Positions 7,115-19,308 of a DNA stretch of 64,000 nucleotides are shown piece by piece. Position 1 is the stretch's first letter. Each line of letters begins with the position of its first letter. The stretch lies in the NCBI GenBank assembly GCA_050011565.1, contig JBEKIW010000005.1, positions 32,001-96,000 on the forward strand. The letters run 5' to 3'. The position numbers were made by a program, and so were the translations under genes. The notes beneath the pieces are model-generated. The model was not told the origin of the DNA, searched no databases, and saw only the letters and a program-made list of their open reading frames with translations. The DNA is from Dehalococcoidia bacterium (GTDB taxonomy: Bacteria; Chloroflexota; Dehalococcoidia; GIF9; UBA5629).

Positions 7115-7202
7115 GCCGAGGTGGTGGAACCTGGTAGACACGCCATCTTGAGGGGGTGGTGGGCGCAAGCCCGTAGGAGTTCAAATCTCCTCCTCGGCAC
7201 CA
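7115..7202 (+). tRNA. tRNA-Leu(GAG)
   Basis: Cloverleaf GCCGAGG...CCTCGGC-ACCA, anticodon loop TTGAGGG, long variable arm, GTTCAAATC T-loop. Confidence 0.95.
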
Positions 7203-7226
7203 TTTTTGATATAATGGAGCATCGTC

Positions 7227-7282
7227 ATGTAGCGGCGAGGCTTTAGCCTCGCCGATGCGACCTTAAAAGGTCGCAACTACAT
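7227..7282. repeat. GTAG-type REP-like double-hairpin element
   Basis: ATGTAG-CGGCGAGGC-TTTA-GCCTCGCCG-AT-GCGACCTT-AA-AAGGTCGC-AA-CTACAT. Confidence 0.7.
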
Positions 7283-7326
7283 TAAAAAATAAATTATTGA
7301 CACAGCCTTTAATATAGTAAAAACGT

Positions 7327-7401
7327 GCGGAAGTAGTTCAGCGGTAGAACGCCTCCTTGCCAAGGAGGAAGTCGCGAGTTCGAATCTCGTCTTCCGCTCC
7401 A
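7327..7401 (+). tRNA. tRNA-Gly(GCC)
   Basis: GCGGAAG...CTTCCGC-TCCA; anticodon loop TTGCCAA. Confidence 0.96.
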
Positions 7402-7412
7402 TATAATTTTAG

Positions 7413-7488
7413 GGCGGCGTAGCCAAGTGGTTAAGGCGGGGGTCTGCAAAACCCCTATTCAGCGGTTCAACTCCGCTCGCCGCCTCCA
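7413..7488 (+). tRNA. tRNA-Cys(GCA)
   Basis: GGCGGCG...CGCCGCC-TCCA; anticodon loop CTGCAAA. Confidence 0.95.
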
Positions 7489-7494
7489 CTTCTT

Positions 7495-7577
7495 GCCGAG
7501 GTGGCGGAATGGCAGACGCGGCGGACTTAAAATCCGCTCTCCGCAAGGAGGTGTGGGTTCGAGTCCCTCCCTCGGCA
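7495..7577 (+). tRNA. tRNA-Leu(TAA), CCA not encoded
   Basis: GCCGAGG...CCTCGGC-A; anticodon loop CTTAAAA; long variable arm. Confidence 0.95.
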
Positions 7578-7634
7578 CTTTTACCATACTGGACACCGTG
7601 CATCTCTTCATACTAAGAAGGCACGCAGAAGGGT

Positions 7635-8957: not shown

Positions 8958-9900
8958 GCTTCTTGCCGATAATCGCCTTTACCGCCTGCTCAATGGCTTC
9001 GGCGGTCAGGCCATACCTCTGGAGGAGCTCGTCGGGCTTGCCGGATTTGGCGTAGATATCTTTGATGCCGATGAAAGCCATGGGCACCGGCTTTTCCCTG
9101 ACTACCACCTGGGCCACCCGGCTGCCCAGGCCGCCGTGAAGCAGATGCTCCTCAGCAACCACGATGGCACCCGTCTGCGTCGCTGCTAAGACAATAGCTG
9201 GCTCATCCAGCGGCTTCAAGGTGGCCATGTTTAGTACCCGACAGTCGACACCTTGAGATGCCAGACTTTTGGCGGCTTCCAGCGCTTTGGAAACCATTAT
9301 GCCGCAGGCAATAACGGTTACGTCCTTACCGTCCCTTAACGTTACCGCTTTGCCCAGATTGAAGCGATAACCTTCAGCATTAACTGCCGGAAACTTGGGA
9401 CGGCCCAGCCTGACATAGAACGGGCCGTTTGTAGCGGCGGCAGCCCTTATCGCCTCAGCCGTCTCTATGCCATCCGCCGGCACGACGACATTAAAACCGG
9501 GCAGCGAGCAATAAAGCGCCAGGTCTTCTATGGCGTGATGTGAAGCGCCGTCTTCACCTACAGTAATGCCACCATGTGTAGCTACAATCTTCACATTAAG
9601 CTTCGGCTGGGCAATGCATATCCTGACCTGGTCAAAACAGCGGCAGGCAGCGAAAACAGCGAAGGTGCTGACAAATGGCATTTTCCCCGAGGCGGCAAAC
9701 CCGCCGGCAATGCTCATCATGTTCTGCTCTTCTAAACCACACTGGAAGAACCGCTCAGGGTATTGCTCGGCGAAGTATTTGGTCATCGTCGAGGGGGACA
9801 GGTCAGCATCAAGGACAACTATATCTTTATATTCCTGGCCCAGTTCCACCAGGACTCTGCCGTAAGCTTCCCTGGTGGATAACTCCGCGTAGGCCGTCAT
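8950..9900 (-). CDS. Transketolase, C-terminal subunit
   Basis: DADLSPST, EQNMMSIAGG, GEDGASHHAIED, EEHLLHGGLG. Confidence 0.93.
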   Translation of the reverse strand: MTAYAELSTREAYGRVLVELGQEYKDIVVLDADLSPSTMTKYFAEQYPERFFQCGLEEQNMMSIAGGFAASGKMPFVSTFAVFAACRCFDQVRICIAQPKLNVKIVATHGGITVGEDGASHHAIEDLALYCSLPGFNVVVPADGIETAEAIRAAAATNGPFYVRLGRPKFPAVNAEGYRFNLGKAVTLRDGKDVTVIACGIMVSKALEAAKSLASQGVDCRVLNMATLKPLDEPAIVLAATQTGAIVVAEEHLLHGGLGSRVAQVVVREKPVPMAFIGIKDIYAKSGKPDELLQRYGLTAEAIEQAVKAIIGKKLR

Positions 9901-10739
9901 GCCAGCTCCTTTAAGGCTATCTCAGCTTCCTGTGGGGTAGGCGCCTTGCCATGAAAATCTACATTCCCCTCCATAAAGCTCACGCCCTTGCCCTTAATCG
10001 TGTGGGCGATGATTACTGTCGGCTTTCCTTTCACTTCCCCGGCTTTTTTTAAGGCCTGCAGAATCTCCTTTATGTCATGCCCGTTTATTTCAAGTACATG
10101 CCAGTTAAAGGCACGCCATTTATCTGGCAGCGGTTCAAGGCCCATAATGTCGCAGACACGGCCGCTAAGCTGCAGGTCATTGTGGTCAACTATAGCCGTC
10201 AGATTATCCACTTTATGATGTGGGGCAAACATAGCCGCCTCCCAGACCTGTCCTTCATCGCATTCTCCGTCACCGAGAAGTACGTATACTCGATAGTCCC
10301 GCTTGTCCAGTCTGCCGGCCAGAGAAATGCCGATACCGTAGGACAACCCCTGCCCCAGAGAGCCAGCCGACATCTCCACTCCAGGGGTCAGCGTTCTATC
10401 GGTGTGCCCCTGTAGGCGACTGTCAAGTTTTCTCAGCGTGGAGAGTTCTTCTACAGGAAAGTAGCCGCATTCCGCCAGGGCGGCATAAAGTATTGGGGCG
10501 GCATGCCCTTTGCTTAGTACAAACCGGTCGCGGTCAGGCCACTGTGGGTTTTTGGGGTCGTGGCGCATCACTTTGAAATAAAGTGCAGTGACGATATCAG
10601 CGGCAGAAAGAGAGCCGCCGGGATGGCCGCTGCCCGCCGTGGCTATCATGGTGATGACGTCACGACGCAGCTGTTTGGCCATCTTCTCCAGCTCGGGGAT
10701 CGATAAATCTAATTTGACTCCGGTGCGTGGCTCTGTCAT
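9897..10739 (-). CDS. Transketolase, N-terminal subunit
   Basis: GSGHPGGSLS, DRDRFVLSKGH, GSLGQG, GDGECDEGQVWEA TPP-binding motif. Confidence 0.95.
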   Translation of the reverse strand: MTEPRTGVKLDLSIPELEKMAKQLRRDVITMIATAGSGHPGGSLSAADIVTALYFKVMRHDPKNPQWPDRDRFVLSKGHAAPILYAALAECGYFPVEELSTLRKLDSRLQGHTDRTLTPGVEMSAGSLGQGLSYGIGISLAGRLDKRDYRVYVLLGDGECDEGQVWEAAMFAPHHKVDNLTAIVDHNDLQLSGRVCDIMGLEPLPDKWRAFNWHVLEINGHDIKEILQALKKAGEVKGKPTVIIAHTIKGKGVSFMEGNVDFHGKAPTPQEAEIALKELA

Positions 10740-10792
10740 AGGGTTGATAAATTATAGGCTAGTTAGATAGGAATTGTCTATTTATTTATTAA

Positions 10793-10866
10793 CCTCACCC
10801 CCTACCCCCTCTCCTTGGAAAGGAGAGGGGGAGAAGAAGTCTTACGAAGGGGCTTCGCCCCTTCGT
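10793..10866. repeat. Palindromic double-hairpin repeat (CCCTCTCC...GGAGAGGG type)
   Basis: Perfect 12-bp stem 10805-10816/10820-10831 and 10-bp stem 10844-10853/10857-10866. Confidence 0.7.
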
Positions 10867-10902
10867 GCCTCCCCATTGAGAATATCGGGTTCCTCAATTA
10901 TA

Positions 10903-11751
10903 ATGCTTGAGGTGATTATAGACTTCCATACCCATGTGGTACCGCCGGGAATAAAAGAAAGGCGCGATAAATACCTGGGCCGTGATGCCTGCTTTTCCTC
11001 GCTCTATGCCGAACCCAAAGCTAAGCTGATTACGGCTGAAGAGCTCGTCACGGCCATGGACGAATATGGAATCGACAAGTCGGTGGTACTGAACCTGGGC
11101 TGGACGAGCCACGAGCTCTGTGTTGAGACCAACGATTACATACTGGAGTCCATAGACCGTTTCCCAAAGCGGCTCATCGGCTTCTGCGCTATACAGCCCT
11201 TAGCCGGCGATGAGGCTATCAAAGAACTGGAGCGATGCGCCCGGAATGGTGCCAAAGGCGTCGGTGAAATGAGGCCAGATGTTCAGGGATTTGACTTCAA
11301 GGACAGCTCAGTAATGAAACCCATCATAGAAGCGGTCATGAAACATGGCTTGATTTTCCTGACCCATGCCTCCGAGCCAGTGGGGCATCAGTACTTCGGC
11401 AAGGGCAGGATTACGCCTGAAGTCATTTATCCACTCATTGTAAATTTCCCCGATTTGAAACTGGTATGCGCTCATTGGGGCGGTGGCTTACCCTTCTACT
11501 CCTTGATGCCCGAAATAGGCGAGGCCTTGAACAATGTTTATTTCGATACTGCCGCCACTCCATTCCTGTATAAACCTCAGATTTTCAAGTATGTAACCGA
11601 TATTGTGGGCTCCGACAAAATCCTTTTCGGCAGTGATTACCCCCTCCTGTCGCCGAAACGGATAATAGACCAGCTCGAGTCAATTGAGCTTAGCCCGGGA
11701 GACAGGGCTAAGATTCTCGGAGGCAATGCACGAAGACTGTTGTCCATATAA
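10903..11751 (+). CDS. Amidohydrolase family protein
   Basis: IIDFHTH, GVGEMRP, AHWGGG, YFDTA, ILFGSDYP; the upstream ORF extension only reads through the palindrome. Confidence 0.9.
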   Translation: MLEVIIDFHTHVVPPGIKERRDKYLGRDACFSSLYAEPKAKLITAEELVTAMDEYGIDKSVVLNLGWTSHELCVETNDYILESIDRFPKRLIGFCAIQPLAGDEAIKELERCARNGAKGVGEMRPDVQGFDFKDSSVMKPIIEAVMKHGLIFLTHASEPVGHQYFGKGRITPEVIYPLIVNFPDLKLVCAHWGGGLPFYSLMPEIGEALNNVYFDTAATPFLYKPQIFKYVTDIVGSDKILFGSDYPLLSPKRIIDQLESIELSPGDRAKILGGNARRLLSI

Positions 11752-11784: not shown

Positions 11785-12372
11785 TTGAGTGAACAGACAG
11801 TCCGGTCTTTTATTGCCATTGAATTGCCGGAAGCGGTTAAAACAGGACTACAGCAGCTTCAAGCCCAGTTGACATTACCCCAGTACAGCTTTGTAAAATG
11901 TGTGGCACCCGAAGGTATGCATCTTACTCTAAAATTCCTGGGCAATATATCGGCTAATAAAGTAACCGATATAACCGGGGCTATGGAACAGGCTAGTCAG
12001 GGAGTTAGCCCCTTTCAGCTACAAATTACTGAGGTGGGTGCCTTTCCTAATTTGAAACGCCCGCGCGTCCTGTGGGTAGGTATAAAGGGCGAGGTGGATA
12101 AACTCGTAAGCTGGCAGCAGCGATTAGACAACGGACTGGTCCCGCTGGGCTTCGCCAAAGAAGCACGACCGTTTACGCCGCACTTGACCTTAGCCCGTCT
12201 GCGAGATAATTGTTCGCCCGTGGACAGCTTGCATCTCGGCGAAACAGTCGCCAATGCACAGGTTAAGGTAAATTATAAATTTACGGTAACTAGCCTGAAT
12301 CTGATGAGAAGCCAGCTTTTGCCAACAGGAGCCGTCTACAGCCGTCTGGCCGAAGTAAAATTAAAAAGCTAG
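11785..12372 (+). CDS. thpR: RNA 2',3'-cyclic phosphodiesterase (2H family)
   Basis: RSFIAI and two HxT motifs, HLTLKFLG and PHLTLAR. Confidence 0.93.
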   Translation: MSEQTVRSFIAIELPEAVKTGLQQLQAQLTLPQYSFVKCVAPEGMHLTLKFLGNISANKVTDITGAMEQASQGVSPFQLQITEVGAFPNLKRPRVLWVGIKGEVDKLVSWQQRLDNGLVPLGFAKEARPFTPHLTLARLRDNCSPVDSLHLGETVANAQVKVNYKFTVTSLNLMRSQLLPTGAVYSRLAEVKLKS

Positions 12373-12467
12373 AGTTGTTGTCGCACCCAGGGCACGATGT
12401 TATAATATCTAGTCTGTCCACGACTGAGACCTGCCAGACCTGAACTGAGCACAGACTGGCAATAGAT

Positions 12468-12542
12468 TCCCGAGTAGCTCAGCGGTAGAGCGGGCGGCTG
12501 TTAACCGCTTGGTCGTAGGTTCGAGTCCTACCTCGGGAGCCA
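12468..12542 (+). tRNA. tRNA-Asn(GTT)
   Basis: TCCCGAG...CTCGGGA-GCCA; anticodon loop CTGTTAA. Confidence 0.96.
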
Positions 12543-12672
12543 ACCCCCACTAAAAAAGAGCCTATGTTCTCCTGGCACAAAGCAGTAACACTATTACTCT
12601 CCTGCCAGTGATATAATAGATATTGAGGCGCTATGCTCCCATTTTCTCTTAGGAACGTCAGTGAGGTTAGTT

Positions 12673-13275
12673 ATGGCTTTACAGGATGAACTAAGGGCAT
12701 TGTTAGACAACAGCATAGAGGAACCACCACTCCAAGTTTTCCTTCAGCAGCACCCTGAGATTTTGATGCGTACGTTTGGCCAGGGAGCGCAGTACTCAGT
12801 AGTGCTCCCTAAATTCCGTCTGGCCGAAGATTTCATTCCAGATTTCGTCATGATTGGACGCCGGTCAGGATCAGCAGGGACATCGTGGGACGTGGACCTA
12901 ATAGAAATCGAGCCTTCCGCCGTAAGGGGGTTATTATTCACTAAGAAGTATCTAGCTCGGGGGCATCTTAGGGTGGCCATGTCACAGGTTGATGACTGGA
13001 AGATATGGATGGAGAAGTACGAGCAGACTATCTTCGTGCCCAAAGCATTTGAGCAGCTCAAGGCAATAGGAGCGTGGGACGACCACCCGGAGTTCTATAC
13101 TCCAACAATTGGCACTCATCAGCATATGATAGTTTGGTATCGCATTATCATTGGACGAAGAAATGATTTCGATGATCGAGGAAATGAATACCGAAATCTT
13201 ATCTTGAAAGAATCTCGCAATAGAGTCGAGATTGTTACATGGGATCGTCTGCTGGACAAAACAAGGCTAATTTAA
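12673..13275 (+). CDS. Shedu (SduA)/DUF4263-like PD-(D/E)xK nuclease
   Basis: E..LQ.FL..HP, IPDF, LIEIE, LFTK, A.SQV.DW, IIIGRR and IVTWDRLL, the motif order of DUF4263. Confidence 0.8.
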   Translation: MALQDELRALLDNSIEEPPLQVFLQQHPEILMRTFGQGAQYSVVLPKFRLAEDFIPDFVMIGRRSGSAGTSWDVDLIEIEPSAVRGLLFTKKYLARGHLRVAMSQVDDWKIWMEKYEQTIFVPKAFEQLKAIGAWDDHPEFYTPTIGTHQHMIVWYRIIIGRRNDFDDRGNEYRNLILKESRNRVEIVTWDRLLDKTRLI

Positions 13276-13311
13276 TCTTGTGGTGCAACCAAATCACAAA
13301 TGGAATAATAT

Positions 13312-13346
13312 CTTGGCCGTAGGTCTGAATCCTACCTCGGGAGCTA
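13312..13346 (+). repeat. att-like copy 1 of the tRNA-Asn 3' end
   Basis: CTTGGCCGTAGGTCTGAATCCTACCTCGGGAGCTA, 30/35 identical to 12508-12542. Confidence 0.88.
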
Positions 13347-13409
13347 CATCACCTTCTCCCAAAGCATATGCTAGGGGAAAAATCACACCGCATTAAGTGA
13401 GGCATAGAA

Positions 13410-14591
13410 ATGGAAAGTTCTGCGCTTACTCCGGAGAAACAATTTCTGAAATATCATGATAGGCTGAGAGAGGAACTCAACTGGGCACATACACATCATG
13501 AAATTTGCAAAACATTAAGAAAGCATAAGTCCGATTACCTGAATGAAATGAATGCAGCCCCTTCATTTTTTGGTTTGACAATCGATGCCCATCTTTTTGC
13601 CACCATAATGAGCATCAATAAATTAATTGATGAGCACTCCAGCAGCTCTCTCAAAATGACGAGGTTTTTTGAATTTATTGAGGGAAACTTCAGTATTTTC
13701 TCAGACGAGTCATACATAAAGCATCTTCGTGTTAAAGGCTACGACGATGAAGATTGTGGGCATTGGCTAAAGAAAAGAACTAAAATTACGCGTGACACTA
13801 TAAAAGAAGATAGGCAGGTCATTAAAAATATACCTATTGAGAATCTGAAGGATTGGAGGGACAAGAAACTTGCACACATAGATGAAAAGTACGTCCTGAC
13901 AGATACCAAAGTATCTCAAAAAAGCCCTATTACAAGCGCTGATATAGATAAAATAATCAATAAATTACACGGGATATTAAATCGTTATTTATTGGCATAT
14001 GACGGTTCGGGATGGGAGATCGGTTTACCCGCTGGAGTATCTGATCAGATAGTGTATGTATTAGACTCAATTAGGTTACACCGACACCAGCATGCAAAGA
14101 AAAGCCTGCCGAAGAGCGCCAAGAAGCCCAATCAAAAGAGGCATTTTATACTTATTCTATATGAACAATTTAAGGAGCTATCAGAGTCCACCGGAATTAT
14201 TTTTTTAATATTCGGAGTTATCTTTTTAGTTCTTGCTGTAGTTTTACTTCAGGTAAATAGCGTTCAAGAAGTTGCATCTAGACTGGTGTTCCCTACGGCA
14301 TTAGCAACGATATCATTAGGAATAGGGTTTATAGCAGTTGGCGTGACAGTCAAGTCTGATAAAAGATATTCTGAGTTATTAGGAAGAATACTTCATCAGG
14401 TAGAAGATTTGCCGTATAAATTAGGTGACAAAGTTAGGCTACCAAGTGTACTTGGTGACTATAGTAAAGAGGCTGCTCAAAAGAGGTTGGATGAAGATAC
14501 AAAAAATAATAGGGGTCAGCCACGTGGTGAATTATTTGAAGTAGAGAAAGGAAAATGGGCAATTTATTGGGGTGGAAAATATCCACTGTAA
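13410..14591 (+). CDS. AbiU2-like HEPN protein fused to a two-TM membrane module
   Basis: AAPSFFGL...IMSINKLID and HEPN Rx4-6H motif WRDKKLAHID; two hydrophobic helices later; visibly AT-rich. Confidence 0.7.
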   Translation: MESSALTPEKQFLKYHDRLREELNWAHTHHEICKTLRKHKSDYLNEMNAAPSFFGLTIDAHLFATIMSINKLIDEHSSSSLKMTRFFEFIEGNFSIFSDESYIKHLRVKGYDDEDCGHWLKKRTKITRDTIKEDRQVIKNIPIENLKDWRDKKLAHIDEKYVLTDTKVSQKSPITSADIDKIINKLHGILNRYLLAYDGSGWEIGLPAGVSDQIVYVLDSIRLHRHQHAKKSLPKSAKKPNQKRHFILILYEQFKELSESTGIIFLIFGVIFLVLAVVLLQVNSVQEVASRLVFPTALATISLGIGFIAVGVTVKSDKRYSELLGRILHQVEDLPYKLGDKVRLPSVLGDYSKEAAQKRLDEDTKNNRGQPRGELFEVEKGKWAIYWGGKYPL

Positions 14592-14706
14592 AGCATGATT
14601 TGGCTAACTATTTTCCTTAGGTCCTACTCATAGGTAGCTTGATTGAGCAGCCACCCGAAAGTGGATGATATGCAGAAGAAGATTCAAAACTATTTTTGTC
14701 CCCAAC

Positions 14707-14925
14707 TTACTTTGTAACAGTCCGCCCATGCTCCTCCAGCCACTTTATAACCTCATTCCAGGACTTGGCCTTTGCTTTTTGGGGAGCTTTCGACTTACGC
14801 CACCTTATTCCACCTTTGCCTACAAGGAACGTTCCAATATTCTTGTCACTACCATCATTGACCTCGAATCTAACCATCTTAGTCCCCTGTAGTTCCTGGT
14901 TTTCCATGCAGATTTTTACTCTCAC
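14707..14925 (-). CDS. Small hypothetical protein (72 aa)
   Basis: AGGAGG RBS 6 nt before GTG; protein-like composition. Confidence 0.65.
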   Translation of the reverse strand: MRVKICMENQELQGTKMVRFEVNDGSDKNIGTFLVGKGGIRWRKSKAPQKAKAKSWNEVIKWLEEHGRTVTK

Positions 14926-15076
14926 AGTTTGCCTCCTATTATATACTCTTGCGAATACGAACTGTAACTACGATTATACACTCGCTCAACACAAAATAGA
15001 AGACCTTATACCGAGTTCTGTCAAGCCGCCCCCGCCGCAGTATCTTGTAGATGGCCTGCCGGCCGAGCCTGTAATA

Positions 15077-15111
15077 CCTGGCCGTAGGTTCGAGTCCTAC
15101 CTCGGGAGCCA
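15077..15111 (+). repeat. att-like copy 2 of the tRNA-Asn 3' end
   Basis: CCTGGCCGTAGGTTCGAGTCCTACCTCGGGAGCCA, 33/35 identical to 12508-12542. Confidence 0.92.
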
Positions 15112-15460
15112 GCTGATTCCACCAGGAGGAAAGGAATGAGATAGGGGGCAATTGTAACCTCCGACCCCAGTGATGTGAAAATGGCGCTATCCCAATTTAG
15201 CTACAGTCATCACATTATTGATATTCCTACTCAATGTGTTAAAATGACGAACGGCTTCGCTGCCTTCAGATAGGCTGTTACTGAAAATTCAGTTTAGCAC
15301 ACAATAAATTAACATTAATTCAAACCCGCTAGAAAACAATTAGAAGGAGGGTAAAACCGTGGCTACGAGCGGACCTATAGCAAAGCGCCATATCAGTAAG
15401 GTTACAAAAATTCAATCTTTCATTAAGCATAGAATTCATGGGGTAAAGGAGTTGTGTTGT

Positions 15461-16897
15461 ATGAAAAACGTAATTCTGCACAAGTTTCTAACTCCCATGG
15501 TATTACTTATCATAGTGAGCACCGTGGCTGCCGGATGTGCTACCCAGGAGGGCACGGTCCAACAAACCATCGACCCGCAGGAGGCCCAGCAGGTCGCCTA
15601 CGATGCCACTGTCTACGGCTTCCCGCTGGTTATCATGGATCTGACCCGGCAGGTCCTCACAGCAGTCCCCGCACCCAACGCGAACGGGGCACCGGTCAAC
15701 CAGTTCGGCAATAAGAAGACATTTCCTGATGCGACTTTTACTAATGTAGTAAACCCTAATGCCGACACGCTTTATTCATCAGCCTGGGTTGATACCGCTA
15801 AAGAGCCGATTATCCTTTCGGTTCCGGATACTCAAGGTCGCTACTACCTGATGCCCATGCTTAATCTCTGGACGGATGTTTTTGGCTCGCCCGGCTCACG
15901 GACTACCGGCACCGGGGCCGGCAATTTTGCCATCACCGGCCCGGATTGGAGCGGTAATTTGCCTGACGGCATCACAGAAATGAAGTCTTCGACCAGGTGG
16001 GTGTGGATAGTCGGGCGCATCGCCTGTACCGGCCCTTCGGACTACGAGGCCGTGTGGAAACTTCAGGACCAGCTGAAGCTGACACCGCTCTCCGCCTGGG
16101 GCACCAATTATGTGCCGCCGACTAATGTCCCTGTCGACCAAGGTGTCAATATCAAAGTGTCTCCTCTCAACCAGTTGCTGACTCTAGATGCGGCCAACTA
16201 TTTCAACTATATCTGCCAGTTGATGGTTGACAACCTTCCCTACGAAGCGGATGCGCCATTACTGGCCAACCTGGCAAATATAGGCATCAAGACTGGAGCT
16301 GACTATAAATCGTATTTTGCCGGGCTGGATGACGGTGTTAAGTCAGCAATTCAAACAGGCTATCAGTCCGCTCTGGCCAAAATTCCTACAGCAAACATGG
16401 GAAACTCAAAAAATGGGTGGCAAATGGTGTACGATACGGGTGATTATGGGACTAACTATATGTTTAGGGCAGCTATAGCTTATCGGGGGCTGGGCGCTAA
16501 TTTAATTGATGATGCTTTCTATGCCTCAGCATCAGCCGGCAGCGATGGAGCTAAATTTTCCAGCGATGATAAATATGTAATTCATTTCAATAAGGATGAG
16601 ATACCACCGGTAAACGGCTTCTGGTCGATTACCATGTACAACGATAAAATTCTATTCGCAGCCAACCCGATCAATAGATACTGTCTGGGCTCTTTAAGTG
16701 ATCCACCTCTTATAAAAAATCTCGATGGCTCGATTGATATTTATATACAGCGTGATTCGCCTGACTCTGCTAAGATGCCAAATTGGCTGCCGACACCGGC
16801 CAGCGGCGATTTTTCATTGACGATTCGCCTGTACTGGCCGCAGGAGGCGGTGCTGGACAAGACCTGGGTACCTCCGGCAGTGCAATTGGTTGAATAG
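15461..16897 (+). CDS. DUF1254/DUF1214 domain lipoprotein
   Basis: AAGC lipobox; YGFPLV, VVNPNADTLYS, GRYY..PMLN.WTD, GSRTTG, PPVNGFWSITMY, NWLP.P...F.L.IRLYWP; start could be GTG 15359. Confidence 0.88.
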   Translation: MKNVILHKFLTPMVLLIIVSTVAAGCATQEGTVQQTIDPQEAQQVAYDATVYGFPLVIMDLTRQVLTAVPAPNANGAPVNQFGNKKTFPDATFTNVVNPNADTLYSSAWVDTAKEPIILSVPDTQGRYYLMPMLNLWTDVFGSPGSRTTGTGAGNFAITGPDWSGNLPDGITEMKSSTRWVWIVGRIACTGPSDYEAVWKLQDQLKLTPLSAWGTNYVPPTNVPVDQGVNIKVSPLNQLLTLDAANYFNYICQLMVDNLPYEADAPLLANLANIGIKTGADYKSYFAGLDDGVKSAIQTGYQSALAKIPTANMGNSKNGWQMVYDTGDYGTNYMFRAAIAYRGLGANLIDDAFYASASAGSDGAKFSSDDKYVIHFNKDEIPPVNGFWSITMYNDKILFAANPINRYCLGSLSDPPLIKNLDGSIDIYIQRDSPDSAKMPNWLPTPASGDFSLTIRLYWPQEAVLDKTWVPPAVQLVE

Positions 16898-17081
16898 AGA
16901 ACTCTTAGCCCCAGCTCTTTGCAACCAACCCGATTGGGATTTTACTGTCTTCTTTATCATCTCAATCATTGTCTGTCCAATAGGTTTTCTAGTAGGGGCA
17001 ATCGGAAGCATAGTTCTCACCATCAAGAGGAATAGGCGGCTGGGTTCAGGCCAATCCAATGCCCAACGGGATACCCCATAG
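16890..17081 (+). pseudogene. Probable C-terminal remnant of a membrane protein
   Basis: Short ORF with FFIISIIVCPIGFLVGAIGSIVL, weak TTG start, ends immediately before the att copy. Confidence 0.4.
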
Positions 17082-17083
17082 CC

Positions 17084-17110
17084 GGTTCGAATCCTACCTC
17101 GGGAGCCAAC
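17084..17110 (+). repeat. att-like copy 3 of the tRNA-Asn 3' end
   Basis: GGTTCGAATCCTACCTCGGGAGCCAAC, 26/27 identical to 12518-12544. Confidence 0.9.
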
Positions 17111-17310
17111 TTCGCAAAATGCGCATCTTTGATACGGCACGGCATTTTCAGAATAACTGGCATTGCCTTACTAATGTACTGGACAGGTACCTTGACAGCT
17201 TAGCGTTCGTAGCCGTATGATATTGCACCGAGGCGAAAGGTTTGGGAAACAACTTATATAAAGTCGAACGCCAGGTATATTAAGAAGCCAAATCGGCAAA
17301 AGGAAATTGA

Positions 17311-19308
17311 ATGCGTAAAGTTAAAGCAACGGCGAAGAGAGACAGATTAATAATATTTATTGACTGGCTAGCGGCTCAACCTCTGTTGACTGAATTGACA
17401 TTGACAGCAATCACAGTCTTATTCGGCATGCAAGTTCTGAGAGCATTGATACCGGGCATTTACTGGATACTGGGCAGCAGAATGGGTTTGGGCTTAGTTC
17501 AGCTCGGGTTAGTCGGATTCGCCATCTTTCTCACTGGTTTTCTGTCCGGTCCGCTGAGCTGGCTTGTGGGCAATCGTCGTCTGATTATTATTAGCGTTGC
17601 CGGACTGGGTCTAGCGCGATTGTTCATGCAAGTCTCATGGGATGAGCCGCTTTTTAATTTGGGTTTAGCGATAATAGGAACAATTTTATTCGTTATCTTT
17701 CTGCCGACGTGCTTTGAAGACGCACGTCTTCGTGGTAGCGCCTCTGTCTCCCGCTATGCGCTGGGACTTCTAGGGGGCTTGGCACTGGATACGGCCATCA
17801 ATGGTGCTTTTGGTACATTTGACATCGTCTGGCAGGCCAAGCTATTACCTGTATTACTAACATTGCTAATATTCGTTATTCAACTTGTGCTCCTGATTGG
17901 CATTGCACCGGCAATCTACAGTGTGTCGACAAAATCATCGGCCACGGCGACCGGCCCAATTTCTCTGGCACGTTCATTTACCTGGCTGGCTATCGGACCT
18001 TTCCTGTTCCTGGAACTGGTAGTTTTCCAGAACATACCACGTGTGGCAACGCTAACCAATTGGCCGTTGCCAATGGCATTCGGACTAACGCTATTAGCCC
18101 AATTAGCGGGCATGGCCACCGCTATCCTGGTTATTACTAAAAACTGGCGAATGTTATGGCCCTGGGCGCTTGGCGCCGGTGTCATCCTAATAGCAACTCT
18201 GGTGTTTGCCTACCAGCAGCCTGCTACGCTGATAGCTATACTGTTTCTTATCGGGCAGGTGCTGGTATCGTCTATTATAACCATGGTTTTGGTAGGCATC
18301 GCTTCCAACACGGGCAAAACCAGGCAGTCCAGTCTATGGATTGCCAATGGCATCGGCATGATTCTGTTTGCTCTGCTCATAATTGCCTACTATGCTGTTT
18401 ACAGTGTGAAGCTTCCCTACCACAACCCCATTATTGAACTCATAGCTGGTGGTATCATCGCTGTCTGTGCTATAGGTGCCGTAATCTTCGGGCAACAAAA
18501 GATGAAGGTGGACACGAAGCTGTGGGCGATGTCGACATTTGCACTGATTCTTTTGGCGTTGCCCCTGGCTCAAATGGTCACCTGGCGTACACCCAGTGCA
18601 GCTACTGGCCAGGGATTGCCCGTAAGTGTGATGACCTATAACTTGAACAATGGCTTTAACCTCAAGGGTAAACTCGACATAGATGAAATCGCTAAAGTAA
18701 TTGAAAGTAACAGACCTGATATCGTCGCTCTGCAGGAAGTATCCAGAGGCTCCGTTGTAAATGGCCGATTGGATATGCTGGCATACTTATCTTACCGGTT
18801 GCATATGCCGTATATTTTTGGTCCGACAGCTGGCCATTTCTGGGGCAATGCCATACTGAGCCGTTACCCAATAGTGGCATATTCAACAGAAAACCTAACA
18901 TCCTCCGAGTCATTAATAGATGGCGGCTTTATCGTAGCACTGATAGACTTGGGAGCTAACCAACAAATCAAGGTTATCGCTACACAATTCGATAATGTGG
19001 AATTGAACACAGAAATTCACCAGCAACAGGCTCAGACGATCATCGATTTCTGGGGAGGACTTCTCGGTACAATACTTCTAGGCGACTTCAGCGCACAATC
19101 TACAAGCCAAGAATTACTTAAATTGCGCCAAGCTAATCTTAAAGACTCTACGATGGGATGGAATGCCGCAAATACTTATCCTTCAAACAATCCAAAGGAA
19201 AGGATAGATTACATCTTGACATCGGCCGACCTCACTGCGAGCGATGTCGGGGTGCTGTCAAGCACTGCCTCGGACCATCTACCTGTCGTCGCCGTGATAA
19301 AAAAGTGA
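17311..19308 (+). CDS. Polytopic membrane protein with C-terminal endonuclease/exonuclease/phosphatase domain (CWH43/PGAP2IP-like)
   Basis: Many TM helices, then VMTYNL, DIVALQEV, GNAILSRYPI, GDFS, RIDYI, SDHLPV; upstream TTGACA-18-TATGAT at 17192. Confidence 0.85.
   Translation: MRKVKATAKRDRLIIFIDWLAAQPLLTELTLTAITVLFGMQVLRALIPGIYWILGSRMGLGLVQLGLVGFAIFLTGFLSGPLSWLVGNRRLIIISVAGLGLARLFMQVSWDEPLFNLGLAIIGTILFVIFLPTCFEDARLRGSASVSRYALGLLGGLALDTAINGAFGTFDIVWQAKLLPVLLTLLIFVIQLVLLIGIAPAIYSVSTKSSATATGPISLARSFTWLAIGPFLFLELVVFQNIPRVATLTNWPLPMAFGLTLLAQLAGMATAILVITKNWRMLWPWALGAGVILIATLVFAYQQPATLIAILFLIGQVLVSSIITMVLVGIASNTGKTRQSSLWIANGIGMILFALLIIAYYAVYSVKLPYHNPIIELIAGGIIAVCAIGAVIFGQQKMKVDTKLWAMSTFALILLALPLAQMVTWRTPSAATGQGLPVSVMTYNLNNGFNLKGKLDIDEIAKVIESNRPDIVALQEVSRGSVVNGRLDMLAYLSYRLHMPYIFGPTAGHFWGNAILSRYPIVAYSTENLTSSESLIDGGFIVALIDLGANQQIKVIATQFDNVELNTEIHQQQAQTIIDFWGGLLGTILLGDFSAQSTSQELLKLRQANLKDSTMGWNAANTYPSNNPKERIDYILTSADLTASDVGVLSSTASDHLPVVAVIKK

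Follow-up and report, generated by a model that had tools for sequence, protein, structure and literature searches.

Integrase-less units bounded by copies of the tRNA-Asn 3′ end form a tandem array with predicted defence genes in a Dehalococcoidia genome

The tRNA-Asn gene and its repeated 3′ end

The window analysed here is a stretch of 64,000 nucleotides from a Dehalococcoidia bacterium (assembly GCA_050011565.1, contig JBEKIW010000005.1; G000:C5:32001-96000 in our naming of genomes and contigs), and the genome, G000, consists of 8 contigs and is 99.2% complete. Directly downstream of its tRNA-Asn gene lies a tandem array of three short gene-bearing units, whose boundaries are copies of the 3′ end of that gene, treated here as attachment (att) sites. 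The array has the following layout, in window coordinates.

12468-12542, forward strand: tRNA-Asn(GTT), called by ARAGORN; acts as attB/attL, with an element-derived 3′ end
12543-13346, forward strand: unit 1, 804 bp, with an SduA_C gene; ends with repeat 2
13347-15111, forward strand: unit 2, 1765 bp, with an HEPN_AbiU2 gene and orf72; ends with repeat 3
15112-17108, forward strand: unit 3, 1997 bp, with a DUF1254/DUF1214 gene; ends with repeat 4 (17084-17110)
17111-19308, forward strand: original downstream flank B′, comprising the EEP gene and the conserved region upstream of it

The full tRNA-Asn gene is present as a single copy genome-wide (ARAGORN and genome-wide blast). Its last 35 nt (12508-12542) are repeated directly at 13312-13346 (repeat 2; 30/35 identical) and at 15077-15111 (repeat 3; 33/35), and a 27-nt copy that includes 2 nt past the CCA lies at 17084-17110 (repeat 4; 26/27). 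A repeat search placed all four tRNA-Asn 3′ copies in one family, with spacings of 804, 1765 and 1997 nt. Allowing ≤3 mismatches, the 25-nt att core was found 3 times in the window compared to 0.00 expected (100 shuffles); repeat 2, with 4 changes in this core, is decayed. None of the 15 inverted-repeat pairs listed brackets the unit ends. A fifth copy of the tRNA-Asn 3′ end (47 nt, 46/47) is located on another contig, at G000:C4:6039-6085. The repeat coordinates, identities and three unit sizes given in a preliminary description of this DNA proved exact (ARAGORN, repeat search and sequence reading), the open reading frame (ORF) calls agree with its one or two genes per unit, and its reading of the repeats as att-type junctions is supported.

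The array displays direct tRNA 3′ repeats with the intact tRNA at one end, as in a tRNA-gene island, and holds no integrase gene inside the element. Its units are att-flanked and without recombination and transfer modules, as in a cis-mobilizable element (CIME). None of the 10 PF00589 (Phage_integrase) and neither of the 2 PF00239 (Resolvase) matches in the genome is on contig C5, in agreement with the earlier statement that the array and the window lack a recombinase.

The thpR-tRNA-Asn-EEP locus in relatives and metagenomes

We searched 61 genomes with the att-core pattern, and tRNA copies and flanking genes were then mapped at the loci. The core was present in 19 of the 61, including 10 of the 13 other genomes of the genus, and in 8 genomes at least two same-strand copies lay on one contig. 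Upstream of tRNA-Asn, thpR was found in 11 loci from 10 related genomes. In nine loci tRNA-Asn and EEP were on one contig, two of them empty and seven filled (0.7-7.6 kb), with the following gaps between tRNA and EEP.

G008: 160 bp, empty
G036: 123 bp, empty
G012: 710 bp, filled
G004: 3643 bp, filled
G006: 3886 bp, filled
G010: 3943 bp, filled
G002: 4636 bp, filled
G000 (window): 4768 bp, filled
G005: 7590 bp, filled

Partial tRNA copies of 15-42 nt partition the filled loci, and arrays were also seen in G001, G013 and G022, the last of which belongs to another genus. Unit boundaries in all arrays are tRNA 3′ copies ending at CCA plus 0-5 nt. Some units are very small (364, 385 and 550 bp in G004, G010 and G012), G006 and G010 have a degenerate distal att copy, and gene orientation is mixed between arrays. 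All-against-all blastp of the array ORFs revealed almost no cargo common to different species. The sequence past repeat 4 aligns with the post-tRNA sequence of the empty sites, including a conserved stretch 5′ of EEP, and in G008 and G036 this same flank follows directly after the tRNA. Comparison of the locus across relatives, as the preliminary description had proposed, demonstrates that the number, size and content of the units vary, with breakpoints at the repeats.

The T-loop reads GAGTCC in the window's tRNA-Asn and in repeat 3, and GAATCC in the distal copy (repeat 4) and in the tRNAs of G012, G013 and G036. A compensatory T-stem variant in G001 is common to the tRNA and the first repeat and is not in the distal copy. 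The present tRNA thus differs from the displaced distal copy, its 3′ end having been replaced on integration. The distal 165 nt of unit 3 are 97% identical to the single unit of G012. Together, these comparisons demonstrate, at the level of sequence, that serial site-specific integration at tRNA-Asn produced the array.

The array was also compared with five metagenome runs (X1-X5), using assembled contigs only, matched at ≥90% identity; in such a comparison uncovered stretches prove nothing, and those of X3-X5 were not taken as absence beyond the hint given below. The runs containing the stretch are peat, soil and sediment metagenomes. X1, which may be the source, and X3 contain the window sequence without differences, and the depth in X1 is even over the units (about 40-43). 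A relative in X5 has the flanks and unit 3 at about 94-99% identity, and 12602-14737 (units 1-2) is without contig cover. X4 contigs, one of which spans repeat 2, cover 12550-15077 and differ from the window at 7 positions in this stretch of about 2.5 kb, and over the left flank, unit 3 and EEP the differences number 48/519, 36/490 and 24/258, respectively (about 91-93% identity); at the flank positions listed, the variant letter is present in every matching contig. The identity changes somewhere between 15077 and 15207, a span of 130 nt in which the 35-nt repeat 3 lies. The X4 and X5 contigs hint at a recent gain or transfer of units 1-2 as one att-bounded block, with the linkage unproven as the contigs break at the repeats. 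Because its distal end matches G012, and X5 covers it but not 12602-14737, unit 3 would be older than units 1-2.

Contig joints at 12544>15017, 12545>15021 and 12556>15087 have sides of 29-40 nt and were not counted as signs of excision, nor were the loose ends at 12542 and 15111, which tRNA-Asn genes of other organisms could cause. A second contig of X1 (1169 nt, depth 48.6) matches 16945-17027 with 4 differences and then diverges, which means that a related copy of the 83-nt 3′ non-coding stretch of unit 3 is present elsewhere in the sample or genome.

A contig search with the EEP protein returned 4 loci, two of them already known and one starting inside EEP; in one complete chromosome EEP lacks tRNA-Asn upstream, with a break in synteny. 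The EEP-bearing relatives are Dehalococcoidia or Dehalococcoidales metagenome-assembled genomes (MAGs). A metagenome scan with the AbiU2 protein of unit 2 gave 1 locus, on a 146,715-bp JGI contig with a 100% identical gene, which is probably the window's own contig and adds no new context.

Zn-ribbon and HEAT-repeat genes are common to G001 and G005 (76% and 79% amino acid identity). They lie past the last att copy and the B′ flank in G001 (9514-11398 of the locus stretch) and between the last detectable att copy and EEP in G005 (12222-14069 of the locus stretch); because they fall past the last att copy, some hotspot content is without an att boundary. The first unit of G002 (G002:C99) starts with what looks like a tRNA-Met-type 3′ end directly after tRNA-Asn, which suggests that att fragments of different tRNAs mix within arrays.

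Origin of the array

We consider it probable that the units are att-bounded remnants of integrated mobile elements, stacked in tandem and devoid of an integrase, similar to CIMEs. In this reading a tyrosine integrase inserted elements whose attP mimics the last 25-47 nt of tRNA-Asn, and each insertion rebuilt the tRNA with the 3′ end of the element and shifted the previous 3′ end downstream as a partial copy. Three such insertions are stacked, with unit 3 the oldest and units 1-2 the youngest, and repeat 4 is the displaced ancestral tRNA 3′ end; the comparison of genomes demonstrates both the insertion and the stacking. The integration modules would have been lost, and cargo of use to the host (a Shedu-like nuclease, an AbiU2 HEPN protein and a secreted DUF1254/DUF1214 protein) would have been retained. 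Repeats 3 and 4 would act as joints, allowing either unit loss by att x att recombination or co-mobilisation by the integrase of a newcomer, and may still be in use for mobilisation.

Remnants of such modules were found in the arrays of two relatives. The first unit of G001 contains a truncated Phage_integrase ORF of 178 aa (profile positions 79-166 of 172), and the G002 array contains two pieces of the G001 integrase gene (84% over 67 aa and 89% over 18 aa) together with a truncated Mu-like gpT capsid ORF. In these two relatives the integration module has thus been lost, and the same presumably holds for the window array; pseudogene pieces that might indicate an origin by deletion are present in G001 and G002, with none in the window units. 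The proposal of the preliminary description that the units are integron-like cassettes that never had an integrase is not supported, in view of these fragments, the decayed att copies, the mixed orientation and the lack of IntI, attI and attC. The view it had set against that proposal, namely decayed remnants of integrase-bearing islands, holds in part, through the integrase and capsid fragments of G001 and G002.

We used the G001 fragment to search 202 genomes of the order for homologues. Its best full-length relative, in G144 (341 aa, 64% over 109 aa), contains a SAM-like and a catalytic domain and lies 240 bp from a 38-nt tRNA-Asn 3′ fragment. DctP is on the far side, and the cargo on the integrase side includes small ORFs, a response regulator gene and a DpnII-type restriction enzyme. 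Integrases at 43-47% identity adjoin tRNA-Met, where 37-nt repeats bound islands of 8.3 and 8.8 kb. Full-length homologues of the fragment thus target the 3′ ends of tRNA genes. Genome G000 has no integrase of the G001/G144 clade, the best matches (37-44% over 60-80 aa) being integrases by tRNA-Glu and elsewhere; the orphan cognate integrase that the preliminary description had envisaged elsewhere in the genome was not found in this clade, and the 10 PF00589 matches are off C5.

Other candidates for a source of integrase or attP were examined and rejected. Scanning viral contigs with the att core gave 14 loci, all 14 of which were full tRNA-Asn genes, most beside other tRNA genes, and no attP fragment; recombinase queries gave no tblastn match at these 14 loci. 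A large serine recombinase in G011:C90 lies near a 26-nt tRNA-Asn-like fragment with a carboxyltransferase gene between them, and the link was not established. In the window, orf72 was rejected as an integrase N-terminus, being unlike 4 full-length integrases (best E 0.96) and without a PHROG or Pfam family, and its match to Mu Gam (E 0.0099) fails the cut-off.

Unit 2 contains one further conserved feature, next to its att copy.

14969-15076, forward strand: conserved att-adjacent arm (P-arm), directly upstream of repeat 3

The arm recurs upstream of att copies in G004 (82%/143 nt), G005 (85%/99 nt) and G001 (85%/89 nt), with a second copy inside the first unit of G001. Another copy is present at G000:C4:3198-3252 (95% over 55 nt), 2.8 kb from the 47-nt tRNA-Asn fragment on the same contig (C4:6039-6085). 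Between the two are an RNase_T-BRCT exonuclease gene (PHROG 'DNA polymerase exonuclease subunit', 6.1e-41) and two ORFs without known family, so that C4:3198-6085 looks like a further unit at a distance from the tRNA-Asn locus, one that no att copy closes. Among the 202 genomes of the order, the arm was found in 4 of the 14 genomes of this genus and, outside it, as one weak match of 38 nt; its conservation between G000 and G001 or G005 exceeds that of the thpR coding sequence (73-76% identical). No second conserved arm (P′) was seen among 27 unit starts compared, where the B′ flanks alone match. We rejected the arm as a structured RNA (RNAalifold -6.1 kcal/mol, 1 of 11 pairs covarying) and as a promoter (the consensus scan lists no site in it). 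Stretches near the C4 tRNA-Asn fragment (C4:6113-6720) recur at contig ends, at C1:741461-741854 (99%), at C1:8-134 and C5:8-127 (89%) and at C8:11600-11716 and C2:1-117 (85%), which suggests a dispersed repeat that breaks the assembly.

Several observations weigh against a stack of remnants. A full-length integrase was present in 0 of the 10 arrays examined, and by Pfam only 1 of the 39 array ORFs of relatives had a Phage_integrase match, which is truncated; either integrases would then be lost very often, or intact elements would drop out during MAG assembly. When the window array was searched by tblastn with 12 recombinases of its own genome, 2 fragments and 4 full-length relatives, no match was obtained at E≤0.1 to 1. 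The G001 integrase fragment is oriented towards its att copy and the G144 integrase away from it. Finally, the arm-bearing units (n = 5; G000 unit 2, the G000 C4 copy, G004, G001 and G005) have different cargo in each and an integrase in none, and a family of integrase-less units would account for an arm common to five cargoes no less well than integrase loss on five separate occasions.

The five arm-bearing units and the lack of a full-length integrase in 10 arrays are also the evidence for a trans-acting capture of cassettes, in which a family of units made of an att core, a conserved arm and variable, mostly defence cargo never coded for an integrase and is inserted, excised and exchanged by a tRNA-Asn-specific integrase on a helper phage or island, as a functional analogue of an integron. 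The near-identity of units 1-2 in X4 (7 differences in about 2.5 kb) within surroundings of about 91-93% identity, and the covered surroundings with uncovered units 1-2 in X5, point in the same direction. We nevertheless judge it unlikely, because pieces of integrase and capsid pseudogenes occur inside the relatives' arrays, no P′ arm is conserved among the 27 unit starts, repeat 2 is altered at 4 positions of the 25-nt core, gene orientation is mixed, and an integrase of the G001/G144 clade is not in the 99.2%-complete genome; moreover, the X4 and X5 contigs end at the repeats without physical linkage, and their uncovered stretches prove nothing. A genus-wide form of such capture is in our view likewise improbable. 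Its miniature units, each with the att core, an arm (about 55-110 nt) and a gene or two, mostly for defence, would be delivered, stacked and exchanged between species at about 91% identity by a G144-type integrase on a non-resident helper, and the arrays at tRNA-Pro and tRNA-Ala of this genome would be further instances of one widespread mode of capture.

We give little credence to the alternative that the att copies are old, inert scars and that content turns over by homologous recombination through conserved flanks after DNA uptake. The tRNA, arm and EEP upstream flanks are strongly conserved in the genus, some content has no att boundary (Zn-ribbon/HEAT genes in G001 and G005, an ABC transporter in G005) and the genome has no cognate integrase, all of which would be compatible with it. 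However, the X4 identity switch falls within the 130 nt that include repeat 3 and not in long flanks, the unit boundaries in all arrays are tRNA 3′ copies ending at CCA plus 0-5 nt, and replaced tRNA 3′ ends are a signature of site-specific, not homologous, exchange. It is hardly credible that the partial copies are relics of a tandem tRNA-Asn duplication or a MAG assembly artefact, an idea with nothing in its favour beyond the repeats themselves, since 3′ parts alone recur, all ending at CCA with foreign content between them, X1 contigs at even depth (about 40-43) and also X3 cover the array, the 146,715-bp JGI contig has the AbiU2 gene at 100%, and comparable arrays occur in 9 other genomes, independently assembled.

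Cargo, other tRNA loci and comparable systems

The genes of the units and of the immediate flanks are as follows.

11785-12372, forward strand: thpR, LigT-like 2′-5′ RNA ligase family gene (Pfam LigT_PEase, 1e-28), left flank of the hotspot
12661-13275, likely ATG 12673, forward strand: Shedu-like SduA_C nuclease, 204 aa (Pfam PF14082 and PADLOC SduA)
13410-14591: HEPN_AbiU2 protein of unit 2, 393 aa (Pfam PF18734, 7.2e-25, residues 10-202)
14707-14925, minus strand: orf72 of unit 2, no family above cut-off in Pfam, PADLOC or PHROGs
15359-16897, likely start ATG 15461: DUF1254/DUF1214 protein of unit 3 (Pfam, 2.5e-48 and 1.4e-31)
17311-19308, forward strand: EEP gene (Pfam Exo_endo_phos, 1.1e-24)

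The SduA_C protein matches PF14082 over profile positions 4-159 of 159 (9.5e-14) and PADLOC SduA at 6.9e-20; by its domain the unit 1 protein is a Shedu-like (SduA) protein, with a predicted anti-phage role. The unit 2 protein is, by the same kind of domain match, an AbiU2 HEPN protein with a predicted role in abortive infection, and no PADLOC model matched it. It has a C-terminal extension with two hydrophobic helices. Homologues occur in 9 other genomes of the 401 in the class; in 8 of these 9 they are 233-255 aa long and cover residues 4-235 only, at ≤46% identity, and residues 252-393 match a separate 168-aa ORF in G426 (41%). Because its C-terminal part matches a stand-alone ORF and the homologues are shorter, the unit 2 protein looks like a fused form. 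The DUF1254/DUF1214 protein probably starts at ATG 15461, followed by a lipoprotein-like signal. Units 1, 2 and 3 have GC fractions of 0.459, 0.405 and 0.488, respectively, compared to 0.522 in the left flank and 0.482 in the right; a foreign origin of units 1 and 2 is backed by GC below the flanks' 0.48-0.52. The right flank carries genes for EEP, a T2SSE ATPase and a CCG/Fer4 protein. At 7115-7578 of the window, 5 kb upstream, lies a cluster of four tRNA genes (Leu-GAG, Gly-GCC, Cys-GCA and Leu-TAA) that is syntenic in G005, G012 and G036; the stretch examined in G004 reaches only Leu-TAA, the nearest.

Array cargo of the relatives was assigned with Pfam and PADLOC.

G001: HEC-04 (7.7e-220)
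G004: PDC-S21/DUF4917 and an Mrr_cat protein
G005: a 355-aa SduA protein and a TIR protein (PDC-S66/ThsB-like)
G010: a GHKL-ATPase protein

Of 10 proteins run against PADLOC, 5 had a match, and the defence candidates of the hotspot comprise Shedu-like, AbiU2, HEC-04, PDC-S21 and TIR proteins over five species.

Partial tRNA 3′ copies were also found elsewhere in G000, at tRNA-Ala (2 copies), tRNA-Met (1, plus one at C5:107667-107709), tRNA-Val, tRNA-Pro at two loci (2 copies on C1, 1 on C2) and tRNA-Glu (1). The island at tRNA-Val is 39 kb long and contains two tRNA-Thr fragments. Integrases lie within 100 nt of tRNA-Ala, tRNA-Val and tRNA-Glu, and no recombinase match was obtained inside the repeat-bounded stretches at tRNA-Met and both tRNA-Pro genes. 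The cargo of the Met and Pro blocks includes ParA-like, MFS, HicB, histidine-kinase, GH3 and DUF1646 genes, and an AAA_16-like ATPase is encoded in the distal tRNA-Ala unit. The two tRNA-Pro blocks have a conserved att-adjacent stretch in common (88% over 78 nt), with no relation to the tRNA-Asn arm. C6 carries a partial copy of tRNA-Lys, and an ORF for a large serine recombinase overlaps tRNA-Ile at C1:535402-536991.

A stack of this type is already known, and the array is a clear example of something already described. Williams in 2002 and the Islander/TIGER work reportedly dealt with tRNA-gene genomic islands in tandem arrays. Such islands resemble the array in a crossover in the tRNA 3′ part, a direct repeat ending at or near CCA, a regenerated tRNA and accumulated defence genes, and differ in their defining integrase gene, which is absent here from every unit. 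Integrons and clusters of attC sites lacking integron integrases (CALINs) likewise consist of small, mostly single-gene units at one site without a recombinase of their own. The array differed from them in every defining feature tested: here IntI, attI, Pc and attC are all absent, the units are joined at direct copies of a tRNA end, gene orientation is mixed, and relatives contain integrase and capsid pseudogenes.

The CIME concept is said to derive from ICESt1/ICESt3 of Streptococcus thermophilus. A report on Dehalococcoides describes tandem ssrA islands, 15 of which lack an integration module and are read as cis-mobilizable, moved by accretion (PMC3146451); the preliminary description, in which these islands carry an integration module of their own, had drawn too strong a contrast as far as these 15 go. 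CIMEs and ssrA islands resemble the array in being att-flanked, without recombination or transfer genes and tandem at one site; they are regarded as derivatives of self-sufficient elements that would move only with the integrase of a helper, and the ssrA islands belong to the same bacterial class. The ssrA islands as described there have ssrA as target, the serine recombinase DsiB, 20-nt ssrA repeats and rdhA operons, whereas the units of the window type are found at tRNA-Asn with remnants of tyrosine integrases, measure 0.36-4 kb across the genus and carry one or two mostly defence genes. The array is not an ssrA island, its target being tRNA-Asn and both PF00239 matches lying on other contigs.

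In a report on Prochlorococcus tycheposons, partial tRNA copies separate the elements of an island, newer arrivals displace older ones, broken integrase genes and additional partial tRNAs are interpreted as relics of earlier insertions, and the cargo includes defence genes (10.1101/2020.12.28.424599). The likeness lies in tRNA-anchored islands of successive insertions parted by partial tRNA copies, with defence cargo. The difference lies in the recombinase and primase/helicase module of tycheposons, seen in 0 of 10 arrays here, and in another lineage (peat Dehalococcoidia) and another tRNA. That module was not found by Pfam, and neither was any primase or helicase, in the window ORFs or the 39 array ORFs of relatives. 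Arrays at tRNA-Asn in Dehalococcoidia did not turn up in our literature searches, none of which was aimed at their prior publication.

For a lineage of uncultured peat Dehalococcoidia with small genomes, the array represents a route for gaining and reshuffling anti-phage genes, with one essential tRNA gene as the landing pad and turnover of content at the species level. It extends the picture of integrase-less islands from the ssrA gene of Dehalococcoides to tRNA genes and defence cargo, and makes the thpR-tRNA-Asn-EEP locus a cheap place to mine new defence genes in the group. If the units were mobilised in trans, they would constitute a natural cassette system with a defined attachment site.

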